From Escherichia coli (GTDB taxonomy: Bacteria > Pseudomonadota > Gammaproteobacteria > Enterobacterales > Enterobacteriaceae), in NCBI RefSeq assembly GCF_003334355.1, contig NZ_QOWP01000012.1: a stretch of DNA of 64,000 nucleotides; one strand, written 5' to 3'. Position numbers and translations under genes: made by a program. Below the pieces are notes generated by a model that saw only the letters and a program-made list of their open reading frames with translations, made no database searches and was not told where the DNA came from. This document shows, in pieces, positions 60,462-64,000 of this stretch; the stretch's first letter is position 1; every line of letters starts with the position of its first letter.

Positions 60462-60686
<225 letters not shown>

Positions 60687-60690
<4 letters not shown>

Positions 60691-62948
60691 ATCTGACGGT
60701 TTTTATTGAAGTTAATCAAACTACCCGCCTTGATAATCTCGCGCTCTTCAGCAGTCAGACTTTCCATATAGAGCGTAATTTCCGTTACCGGCGCATCTTC
60801 ATGGATCACATAACCTTTAAACGTCGTACCCGGATTATCCAGCGCCGCTTTAATGCCAGGGATGTAAATGTAATCCCCCACTTCAAAGGTTGGCACTTCC
60901 GCCATCTGCAGCGGTAACATCCCCCAGTTGATGACGTTAGAACGGTAGCGTTTAGTCGCGTACTCTTCGGCAATATTCGCCAGACCGCCAATCACACGCT
61001 GGCAGCTCGCCGCCTGTTCACGCGCAGAACCATCGCCTGGTTTCACCGCATATACCATGCTGCCAATTTCAGTTTGCAGCGGATCAATATGCTCCTGACC
61101 AGCAATCTGCTTAATGCGCGCAAACACCTCTGTCAGCTCGCTGACATTCCCCGCCAGACGCTGATTTTCCAGCTCAGCAGTCGCTTTACTTCTGCCAACA
61201 TAACCGGGATCGCGGCGTGACAGGGTAAACTCCGCCGGACCAATCGGATTTGAACGATAAGAAGAGGTTTCACCGGAAGGAATCAGTTCGTCGGTGGTGG
61301 TCACTTCGTCGAGGATCTTCGAGCACACTTTCAGGACGATATTGTCAGTCAGCGCACCCAATTCCGGCCAGTCTTTAATGTTCGGTCCGTAAATCAGCGG
61401 TTGCTGAGTTGCCCCTTTCACAAAGCCCTGATAAACACGGTTTTTATACGGCGTTACATCGAAGGCGTACTCCGGCACGTTGTCCCAGCAATCAAGTTCG
61501 CTGGCAGAGGTTAAATAGCCACCGTTTGCCGCAGTCGCAGCGATAGAACGAGCGTCCATCAACGCCACCGCTGACATCTGCCCATTAGCTGGCTTAGAGC
61601 CTTCGCGGTTCGGGAAGTTGCGCGTGGTGTGGCGAATACTTAATCCGTTGTTGATTGGCGTATCGCCCGCGTCAAAGCATGGGCCGCAGAACGCGGTTCT
61701 GATGATTGCGCCTGCGCCAATCAAATCTGCTACCACACCTTTTTTGGCGAGATCCATAAACACCGGCTGTGATGACGGGTAAACTGCCAGCGAGAAGGTG
61801 TCATTGCCACAGGATTGACCGCGCAGTGCATTCGCCGCCGCGATGACGTTTTCGTAGTTACCGCCAGAACAGCCCGCGATAATCCCCTGCTGCACTTTCA
61901 GGCGACCATTTTCCACTTTATCCAGCAGCGAGAGTTTGGCTTTACCGTGCGCCACGCGTTCGGACTCAATTTCAATCTCACGCAGAATGTCGGTCAGGTT
62001 CTGGTTCAGTGTGTCGATTTCATACACGTTGCTCGGGTGGAACGGCAGCGCAATCATTGGTTTGATGGCGCTTAAATCAACGCTGATGCAGCCATCGTAG
62101 TACGCCATCGGTTGAGGGTTAAGCTGGCAGTAATCCTGGCCGCGACCGTGCAGCGCCAGCCAGTTATGGACTTCTTCATCGGTTTGCCAGACAGAACTTA
62201 AACAGGTCGTTTCAGTGGTCATAACGTCAACGCTGTTACGGAAATCGGTAGAGAGCGCAGCAACACCGGGACCTACGAATTCCATCACTTTGTTTTTGAC
62301 GTAGCCGTTTTTGAACACGGCACCGATGATAGCCAGCGCCACATCCTGCGGCCCCACATACGGCGCTGGTTTTCCGGTCAGATGCACCGCAACAACTCCC
62401 GGATAGTCGATATCCCAGGTGTCATTAAGCAGCTGTTTTACCAACTCACCGCCGCCCTCACCGACTGCCATTGTCCCTAATGCACCGTAACGGGTGTGGC
62501 TGTCTGACCCGAGGATCATTTTGCCGCCGCCTGCCATCATCTCACGCATATATTGATGGATGACCGCAATATGCGGAGGCACAAAAATACCGCCATAACG
62601 CTGAGCTGCCGATAAACCAAAAACATGGTCATCACCGTTAATGGTGCCGCCGACGGCGCAGAGTGAGTTATGGCAGTTGGTCAGCACATACGGCAGCGGG
62701 AAACGTTCCATTCCGGACGCTTTAGCGGTCTGTACAATACCAACAAAGGTAATATCGTGAGAGGCTAATGAATCAAACTTAATTTTAAGTTTATCCATAT
62801 TTCCGGACGTATTATGAGAAGAGAGAATAGACCAGGCAATAGTGCCTTTTTTGGCTTCTTCTTTTTTAATTTCGCCGGTGAAATGTTCTTCGGCAATTAT
62901 TTCGTTATTACTGGCGAGAAACACGCCTTTTTCAGATAACTTGATCAT
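60687..62948 (-). CDS. ybhJ: Aconitase-family protein
   Basis: Translation from [11 protein letters not shown] gives 753 aa with aconitase-like Cys-containing regions. Confidence 0.8.
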
Positions 62949-63002
62949 CAAATGCTCCAGATATCTGCGCACCGTGAAGTGCGCAGAAAGATAATAAATG
63001 GA

Positions 63003-63136
63003 TATACTCTAAATAATTCGAGTTGCAGGAAGGCGACAAGTGAGTGAATCCCCAGGAGCTTACATAAGTAAGTGACTGGGGTGAGCGAACGCAAACGCAG
63101 CACATGCAACTTGAAGTATGACGAGTATATTTACAG
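63003..63136. repeat. ERIC (enterobacterial repetitive intergenic consensus / IRU) element
   Basis: GTGAATCCCCAGGAGCTTACATAAGTAAGTGACTGGGGTGAGCG core matches the ERIC consensus as I recall it; lies between ybhJ and ybhI. Confidence 0.8.
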
Positions 63137-63842
63137 CATGTTCCAGCCGATCAGCATATTCCACCACCACACGCCGAGGGTGATATGCACCAGGAAGGTT
63201 AATATCGTCAGTACCGCACCGACCAACCACCAGGATTTAATATCGTTATAACCCACGCCAAAGATGACCGGACCTGCCGCGCCGCCATAGTGAGTAACCA
63301 TGCCGCCATAGGAGTTGGAGAACAACAGTGCCAGCGCGGTTAACATTAACGGTGCGCCGGAGACGTTCGCCAGCATGGCAAATACCGGTAACATAGCAAC
63401 GATATAGGCACTACCGGAAGCGAAGAAATAACGCACGATAATGCTGAGGAAAATAATAACGAAGAAAGCAACGTTACCGTGACCATCAAATGCCAGGTTA
63501 TTTTTAAAGACTTCAGCTAACCATTCGAAGAATTTAACTTTCGATAATAAGGAGCTTAAGCCGATAATACCGCCGTACCAGATTAAGGTATTCCAGCCGC
63601 CTTTATTTTTAACCACGTCTTCCCAGGTAACGATACCCAGCAGCAGCATGGTTGCCATAACAACGATTGCCACGGTGGATTCATCAACCCCCAGAGACTT
63701 ACTGAAAATCCAGCCCAGCAGCGCCAGCACAAAGACACCGAGCAGCATTTTTTCGCGGATTTTCATCGGTCCTAGTTCGGCAAGGCCCGCTTTAGCGATG
63801 GTTTTGTTATCCACCTTCTTAATTTCTGGTGGATACATGGTG
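63131..63842 (-). pseudogene. ybhI: 3' fragment (about 236 codons) of DASS-family anion transporter gene ybhI, interrupted by an insertion sequence
   Basis: Translation is the C-terminal half of a DASS (CitT-like) transporter; expected full length about 477 aa; upstream of 63842 the sequence switches to IS10-type DNA. Confidence 0.75.
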
Positions 63843-64000
63843 CTGAGAGATCCCCTCATAATTTCCCCAAAACGTAACCATGTGTGAATAGATTTTGAGT
63901 AAGCAGGGTTGCAGCCACGAGTGAGTCTTCCCTTGTTATTGTGTAGCCAGAATGCCGCAAAACTTCCATGCCTAAGCGAACTGTTGAGAGTACGTTTCGA
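63843..64000 (-). mobile_element. IS10-family (IS4 superfamily) insertion sequence, inside end and 3' part; continues beyond the window
   Basis: Terminus CTGAGAGATCCCCTCATAATTTCCCC matches the IS10 inside end as I recall it; adjacent minus-strand frame encodes the IS10-type transposase C-terminus. Confidence 0.8.
63856..64000 (-). CDS. IS10-type transposase, C-terminal 47 codons (5' part outside the window)
   Basis: Minus-strand translation RNVLSTVRLGMEVLRHSGYTITREDSLVAATLLTQNLFTHGYVLGKL-stop, near-identical to the IS10 transposase C-terminus as I recall it. Confidence 0.75.
   Translation of the reverse strand, partial: RNVLSTVRLGMEVLRHSGYTITREDSLVAATLLTQNLFTHGYVLGKL

Follow-up and report, generated by a model that had tools for sequence, protein, structure and literature searches.

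The 242-amino-acid open reading frame (ORF) at the end of this Escherichia coli contig is an ordinary IS10-split pseudogene. We analyzed a window of 64,000 nucleotides (RefSeq contig NZ_QOWP01000012.1, assembly GCF_003334355.1) whose last position, 64000, is the end of contig QOWP01000012.1 in draft assembly GCA_003334355.1; the contig stops inside an insertion sequence (IS). An IS10 of the ISVsa5 isoform (1329 bp in a complete copy from another sample) very probably did no more than insert into ybhI, and the in-frame ORF would be a pseudogene remnant left open by chance of frame. The relevant features, all within the last 870 nucleotides, are as follows.

63131..63859, minus strand: chimeric ORF of 242 amino acids with an ATG start, from the ORF list and its translation, which begins MRGSLSTMYPPEIKK
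63131..63842, minus strand: 3′ ybhI remnant (last base of codon 241, codons 242 to 477, and the stop), encoding the second half of a DASS-family anion transporter
63857..63859, minus strand: ATG of the chimeric ORF, overlapping the transposase TGA as ATGA (63859-63856)
63856..63999, minus strand: 3′ end of the transposase gene, last 47 codons (...THGYVLGKL) and TGA at 63858-63856, from translation
63843..64000, minus strand: inside-end portion of an IS10-family element, which RefSeq names ISVsa5, 158 nt, with its tip CTGAGAGATCC... at 63843
63865..63868, minus strand: GGGG stretch, -9 to -6 relative to the fusion ATG (5 nt upstream), weak to moderate Shine-Dalgarno-like
63834..63842, minus strand: 9-bp IS10 target CACCATGTA (read on the minus strand) adjoining the inside end, one copy of the expected target-site duplication
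63836..63838, minus strand: native YbhI Met243, an alternative start that gene callers use in other disrupted alleles to give a 235-amino-acid product

These parts, the junction between them and the truncated frame are read directly from the DNA. A preliminary description of the window had placed the start of the 242-amino-acid ORF at 63859, its first five codons inside the IS10 terminus, and the C-terminal roughly 236 residues of YbhI in the remainder. All three points hold: the ORF runs from an ATG on the minus strand (63131..63859), codons 1 to 5 (MRGSL, 63859-63845) are IS sequence, as are bases 1 and 2 of codon 6 (63844-63843), with ybhI beginning at 63842. Residues 7 to 242 are identical to residues 242 to 477 of the intact, 477-amino-acid YbhI of strain ATCC 8739 (236/236), and at the DNA level homology to intact ybhI stops at ...CACCATG. 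The alignment to full-length YbhI that had been proposed as a check thus covers the C-terminal half only. Likewise, the ORF matches only positions 238 to 472 of the 472-position PF00939 (DASS) model, short of the complete fold.

Upstream of the ATG, the frame runs to the window end with neither another start codon nor a stop, and in a complete IS copy no alternative start precedes the ATG as far back as the preceding stop; translation of this frame could thus begin no earlier than the ATG at 63859. Start codon, Shine-Dalgarno-like tract, and first five codons are all derived from the IS. We rejected a native short gene because full YbhI has 477 residues, not about 240, and only half of the Pfam model is matched; the DNA upstream of the ATG is IS10-family DNA and not the contiguous N-terminal half of the transporter. 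The earlier view of a frame created by insertion is borne out by this upstream IS DNA and half-length Pfam match, and on sequence grounds the ORF is best classed as a chimeric pseudogene remnant, an ordinary by-product of IS10 splitting ybhI and not a native gene. Given the orientation, an in-frame fusion is a 1-in-3 outcome, for which no chance statistics are needed. Every IS10 inside end carries an ATG overlapping the transposase stop, and strain MB53, with an independent insertion at codon 92 of ybhI, offers a second in-frame case, MRGSLS-TWLVFSA.

The identification of the element as IS10, and of the visible terminus as its inside end, also stood up. The tip lies at 63843, and all 158 IS bases are 100% identical to many RefSeq copies annotated as "IS4-like element ISVsa5 family transposase"; ISVsa5 is an isoform of IS10. 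On the plus strand, the characteristic IS10/ISVsa5 inside-end terminus CTGAGAGATCCCCTCATAATTTCCCC starts at 63843 (63843-63868), and the IS sequence CTGAGAGATCCCCTCATAATTTCCCCAAAACGTAACC... runs from 63843 to the window end. No other IS10-type end occurs in the window; among complete E. coli genomes, IS10-like ends are present in 1023 of 5426. The translated ending ...THGYVLGKL* is the C terminus of the IS10 transposase, whose gene reaches into the window with no more than its last 47 codons and the stop. In MB53 and in a Logan contig, here called L034, complete elements have the same ends. Annotated copies encode a 402-amino-acid DDE_Tnp_1 (PF01609) transposase, as does the 402-amino-acid coding sequence (CDS) of MB53, and the complete 1329-bp IS of L034 has an open frame of 406 codons that is called as a 402-amino-acid gene. 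The L034 inside end is identical to that of the window over 158/158 bases, and the L034 copy lies in the opposite orientation. In the structure of Tn10, an inside end against chromosomal DNA marks transposition of a single IS10. Here the inside end abuts chromosomal DNA, and so the element moved alone and not as part of a composite Tn10, which we rejected.

Our proposed mechanism is that the IS10-family element transposed alone into ybhI between codons 241 and 244 at CACCATGTA, with its transposase gene in the direction of ybhI, which would have left the 3′ half behind the inside end. The 5′ half would then read ...ACC ATG TA up to the outside end CTGATGAATCC, with C plus TGA contributed by the IS, to give YbhI residues 1 to 244 followed by a stop. 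For a simple insertion, the expected left junction downstream of ybhH would be ybhI ...TTTACACCATGTA (also ...GATTTACACCATGTA) followed by the outside end CTGATGAATCC or CTGATGAATCCCC. On the other side, the constant inside-end ATG would open a 242-codon frame into ybhI by chance.

The second copy of CACCATGTA lies beyond the contig end. In L034, both copies flank the complete IS, in the order ybhI ...CACCATGTA, 1329-bp IS, CACCATGTATCC.... The predicted 244-amino-acid 5′ product (YbhI 1-244) was looked up and found on record. In nine fetched loci (L006-L014), an IS10 end directly follows (C/T)ACCATGTA, at the same 9 bp CACCATGTA; the outside end is on the ybhH side in 7 fetched loci and the inside end in 4. 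Loci with IS10 at CACCATGTA vary in the end that faces ybhH, in the outside-end variant (TTTTTATCAAA or TTTTGGTAAA), and in single-nucleotide polymorphisms (SNPs) ≤25 bp from the junction. In a comparison of 3-kb flanks, insertion alleles fall on at least six haplotypes, with 9 to 97 differing sites and interleaved with intact alleles, and one locus (L016) carries a further inside-end junction in a divergent protein background. Independent events were counted by orientation, IS variant, and flank haplotype, using only loci that bear a junction. By this count, at least about eight independent insertions occurred at the same phosphodiester bond, in both orientations. The 394 blocks on 322 contigs returned for the 244-amino-acid product were rejected as an insertion count, since many contigs merely end there (L015, L017-L025); contigs that end at codon 244 without a junction probably reflect strain-level SNP branch points. 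Repeated use of the site is thus observed in other strains, and it is from these strains that we infer a simple insertion in the source strain.

Published consensus sequences for IS10 targets are NGCTNAGCN in strict form and NRCNNNGYN in relaxed form (PMC4574204), and the C at position 2 of GCTNAGC has been found important, with the C/G pair critical (PMC2744996). The 9-mer CACCATGTA fits the relaxed form at all four specified positions and the strict form at 2 of 6; of NGCTNAGCN, it retains only C at position 3 and G at position 7, the critical C/G pair, and is a poor hot-spot match. Literature searches returned no paper mentioning ybhI together with IS10 or Tn10 and nothing relevant on an ISVsa5 hotspot or target site.

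Records of the exact 242-amino-acid product come from one contig, QOWP01000012.1, where it was deposited as hypothetical protein RCQ22703.1. The junction seen in the window occurs in 0 of 5426 complete E. coli genomes, and a scan of JGI metagenome contigs for both junctions gave 0 matches. Products prefixed FGEI... and GEI..., which we guessed as contig-edge gene calls of the right-hand junction in other samples, were both absent from the record. Three strains, which gave the best apparent matches over the full length, were considered as carriers of the same junction and rejected: MB53 has ISVsa5 at a different ybhI site; KL53 has an intact ybhI, its match being an artefact of joined pieces; and SEV1 has IS1 in ybhI plus ISVsa5 between ybhH and ybhD.

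The 5′ half of ybhI and the second IS junction are outside view because the assembler stopped within a repeated IS. The exact 244-amino-acid 5′ product is recorded from Logan and ENA assemblies only, and from no NCBI assembly, which implies that the source strain has either an amino acid variant in the 5′ half or a rearrangement. In the latter case, the IS10 would be the joint of a deletion, an inversion, or an inter-IS10 recombination, and the ybhI 5′ half would not lie across the element. Such joints do form at this locus, as L036 illustrates at another ybhI site, and both the position of the other junction outside the contig and the lack of the 244-amino-acid product in NCBI assemblies would fit one. 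We nevertheless consider a rearrangement improbable: in seven loci fetched from other samples, the left junction is the complementary one that a simple insertion in this orientation would leave, L034 is an intact simple insertion with target duplication at the same site, and one amino acid polymorphism in the 5′ half is enough to explain the missing exact match.

YbhI has been described as a putative transporter of tricarboxylates that is encoded in the YbhD-repressed ybhHI unit and has a malate-related phenotype (PMC9068703). The intact protein aligns end to end with the DASS transporters DiT1 (residues 9 to 472) and LaINDY. The break comes after a transmembrane-like segment centred on residues 225 to 239 and before a hydrophilic stretch at 245 to 272, a pattern that puts it at the start of a predicted central hydrophilic linker between the two halves. 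Half of a DASS protein would be expected neither to transport on its own nor to have an independent function.

Could the fragment be expressed? The preliminary description had seen no obvious Shine-Dalgarno sequence before the ATG. This is right insofar as the candidate site is only weak to moderate, and needs amending in that a GGGG tract lies 5 nt upstream. Its duplex with the anti-Shine-Dalgarno sequence (16S 3′ end) is predicted at -5.5 kcal/mol, compared with -2.1 ± 2.4 for background 17-mers and -4.1 for the native ybhI start; the site thus ranks in the top ~13% of such background sequences and exceeds the native start. The fusion ATG lies 17 nt from the IS tip. A stronger Shine-Dalgarno-like sequence, GAGGGG, in the IS tip is 13 nt upstream of Met243, a spacing that would be too long for efficient initiation. 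The ATGA overlap would allow low-level translation by termination-reinitiation or coupling to transposase translation. In our proposed mechanism, the fragment would have no promoter of its own; transcripts would come from the repressed transposase gene or from ybhH-ybhI read-through across the IS, and ribosomes would start either by reinitiating after termination at ATGA or at the weak GGGG site.

The outward promoter of IS10, pOUT, is located within ~100 bp of the outside end (PMC9330008). In the known cases of pOUT activation (otsBA, acrEF, and cat; PMC2744996, PMC9330008, PMC4574204), an IS10 lies directly upstream of a coding sequence, as here, but with its outside end facing the gene. At ybhI it is the inside end that faces the fragment, and the mechanism is inapplicable. 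Being at the outside end, pOUT would be directed away from the 3′ fragment and antisense into the 5′ half; because it faces the wrong way, only weak transcription in the transposase direction, from pIN, or ybhH-ybhI read-through, could reach the fragment. Transposase expression is itself repressed by Dam methylation, RNA-OUT, and Hfq (PMC5006887). A promoter consensus scan of the visible IS end found no site directed into the fragment and no more sites than in shuffled sequence. An outward promoter at the IS10 inside end, OUTIIp, has reportedly been claimed, and a weak promoter at this end is possible. Taken together, these features suggest that expression of the fragment would be very low.

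It seems very unlikely that the fusion ORF is expressed and matters, whether as a split transporter with the N-terminal half (1-244) or through an activity or toxicity of its own. The ATGA overlap, a GGGG tract at suitable spacing, and a break at the start of the linker between the halves are what such a reading would want, as is the second in-frame case, the codon-92 insertion of MB53; two in-frame fusions of two, however, would arise by chance about 1 time in 9. Because both orientations are common, selection for the MRGSL fusion is argued against: the two are similar in number (7 versus 4) at codon 244, and the codon-92 site follows the same pattern. Moreover, IS10 transposase synthesis is strongly repressed (PMC5006887), the visible end has no outward promoter-like site, and the other lesions of ybhI (IS1, IS903-like, Mu-like, frameshift, and inversion) form a pattern of simple loss. 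Hardly credible is a third alternative, an assembly artefact in which collapsed IS10 repeats produced a chimeric contig end: this is a draft short-read assembly whose contig ends within a repeat, with a right-hand product known from one contig and absent from 5426 complete genomes and the JGI metagenome contigs, but the junction coincides exactly with the tip of the IS, the same 9-bp target is found on the complementary side elsewhere and on both sides in L034, and assemblers break at repeats rather than make precise transposon-tip junctions.

Insertion of IS10 into ybhI is not confined to codon 244. The positions compared, with their target sequences and what was found there, are listed below.

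ybhI codon 244, CACCATGTA: IS10 in both orientations, on at least six flank haplotypes
ybhI codon 92 (MB53 type), (T/C)ACCTGGCT: IS10 in 10/10 fetched loci, in both orientations, with two outside-end variants and several flank haplotypes
ybhI codon 307, RACYATGCT: IS10 in both orientations
ybhI codon 125, CACCACGCT: no IS10
ybhI codon 238, CACCCCGCT: no IS10
clsB codon 352, AACCATGCT, identical to the core of ybhI codon 307: only contigs ending there
ybhR codon 217, CACCTGGCA: nothing on record

At codon 92, the target duplication (T/C)ACCTGGCT is found in MB53 (locus L001, 5401-5413 and 6710-6740) and in L036-L045 (at ~3276). At codon 307, IS10 junctions occur at ~1121 in L060 and L061, one with an outside end and one with an inside end, the latter with 19 similar contigs. 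The preferred ybhI positions have a common core, ACC-W-K-G-Y.

Other lesions were seen in the same gene. In L028-L032 (NCBI and ENA assemblies), a different IS, IS903-like, with the end ...CCCGAAATCTGATTTATTCAACAAAG(C/T)C and gene calls DDE_Tnp_1 and DDE_Tnp_1_5, lies 5 bp upstream of the IS10 site, just upstream of Met243. L033 (1-1500) carries the right end of a Mu-like prophage, with Mom and Com genes and terminal sequence ...TTTTTCGTGCGCCGCTTCA, in ybhI ~30 bp upstream of the IS10 site. In L047, the sequence switches at ~914, in codon 238, to the reverse complement of a stretch ~70 bp downstream (17/24 contigs read), apparently a small inversion bounded by CCCGCT and AGCGGG, two short inverted repeats. 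L046 has a 1-bp deletion and L026 and L035 have a +1 frameshift, near a CACCCCG run; these lesions and that of L047 truncate YbhI. In L036 (3289-6279), what comes after the codon-92 IS10 is not the rest of ybhI but a glycosyltransferase-like gene, unrelated and at least 688 amino acids long; this suggests an IS10-mediated rearrangement in that strain.

Of 5426 complete E. coli genomes, 5316 have a contiguous ybhI copy that spans ≥80% of the gene. The remaining 110 (2.0%), a figure that excludes IS1 insertions and frameshifts, include 73 with no match at all. By the same measure, the neighbours clsB and ybhC lack such a copy in 3 and 9 of 5426 genomes (0.06 to 0.17%), so that ybhI is lost or grossly disrupted ~12 to 35 times more often. 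IS1A lies inside ybhI in many complete genomes, SEV1 among them. One reading of this record is that loss of ybhI is repeatedly favoured in natural E. coli, with IS10 supplying mutations at codons 92, 244, and 307. It draws on numerous independent insertions, of either orientation, at three sites in ybhI, with none at the matched clsB and ybhR sites, and on the other ybhI lesions (IS1, IS903-like, Mu-like, frameshifts, and inversion) together with the 12- to 35-fold excess of loss. We hold it to be doubtful, if worth keeping in mind: with two control sites outside the gene and without a genome-wide denominator, the data do not tell apart a target preference set by the flanks, relaxed selection, and positive selection for loss. 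A variant in which insertion in the linker leaves two half-transporters that still assemble is less likely.

Several features of the neighbouring sequence were noted. The ybhI-ybhJ spacer after the ybhI stop (63002-63130) holds an imperfect 26-nt inverted repeat, 81% complementary with 77 nt between the arms, that contains an ERIC-type core, GTGAATCCCCAGGAGCTTACATAAGTAAGTGACTGGGGTGAGCG; a MITEEc1/ERIC element has been described between ybhJ and ybhI in another strain (PMC8613203). Between ybhC and ybhJ (60500-60680), mirror-image ORFs with repeated ...RIRHLLSDAMLAHLIRPTNRIE... motifs are what tandem REP/BIME palindromic units typically give rise to and do not point to genes. For ybhJ (60687-62972), the mechanical ORF has 761 amino acids from a GTG, while RefSeq and the gene caller start at an ATG 8 codons downstream to give 753 amino acids (MIKLSEKG...).

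The split ybhI resembles the IS10 and Tn10 insertion mutations of E. coli and Salmonella (IS4 family) in its ends, in the fit of the target to NRCNNNGYN, in the 9-bp duplication seen in L034, in the disrupted gene, and in the contig break at the repeat; full copies with identical ends share the 1329-bp length (L034) and the 402-amino-acid DDE transposase. The mechanism is no different, yet here a 9-mer with a poor consensus match has been reused many times. Compared with YbhI (b0770), DiT1 (9mcr), and LaINDY (6wtw), the ORF supplies residues 242 to 477 of YbhI as its residues 7 to 242, the second half of PF00939; it lacks the entire first half of the fold, has six foreign N-terminal residues, and is a fragment, not a member of the DASS/SLC13 family. 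RefSeq already holds ybhI pseudogenes split by an IS (MB53 with ISVsa5; SEV1 and many others with IS1A), which the PGAP annotation names "anion permease, incomplete," at insertion positions other than that of the window. Beyond the preliminary description, the present analysis adds the ATGA overlap and Shine-Dalgarno-like tract, the orientation of pOUT, the repeated use of the site, the contig end, and the link to RCQ22703.1.

RCQ22703.1 should thus be regarded not as a gene but as the tail of a pseudogene that an IS has split. MRGSL-prefixed ORFs are to be expected wherever IS10 lands in the right frame, MB53 being a second example in ybhI. The repeated IS10 hits and the frequent breakage of ybhI make up a small natural data set on target preference versus selection for loss. 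If loss were indeed favoured, the insertions would represent adaptive inactivation of a putative tricarboxylate/malate-related transporter, beyond mere tolerance of its loss. For the uncharacterised ybhDHIJ locus, the record hints at dispensability, or at a cost, in some niches.
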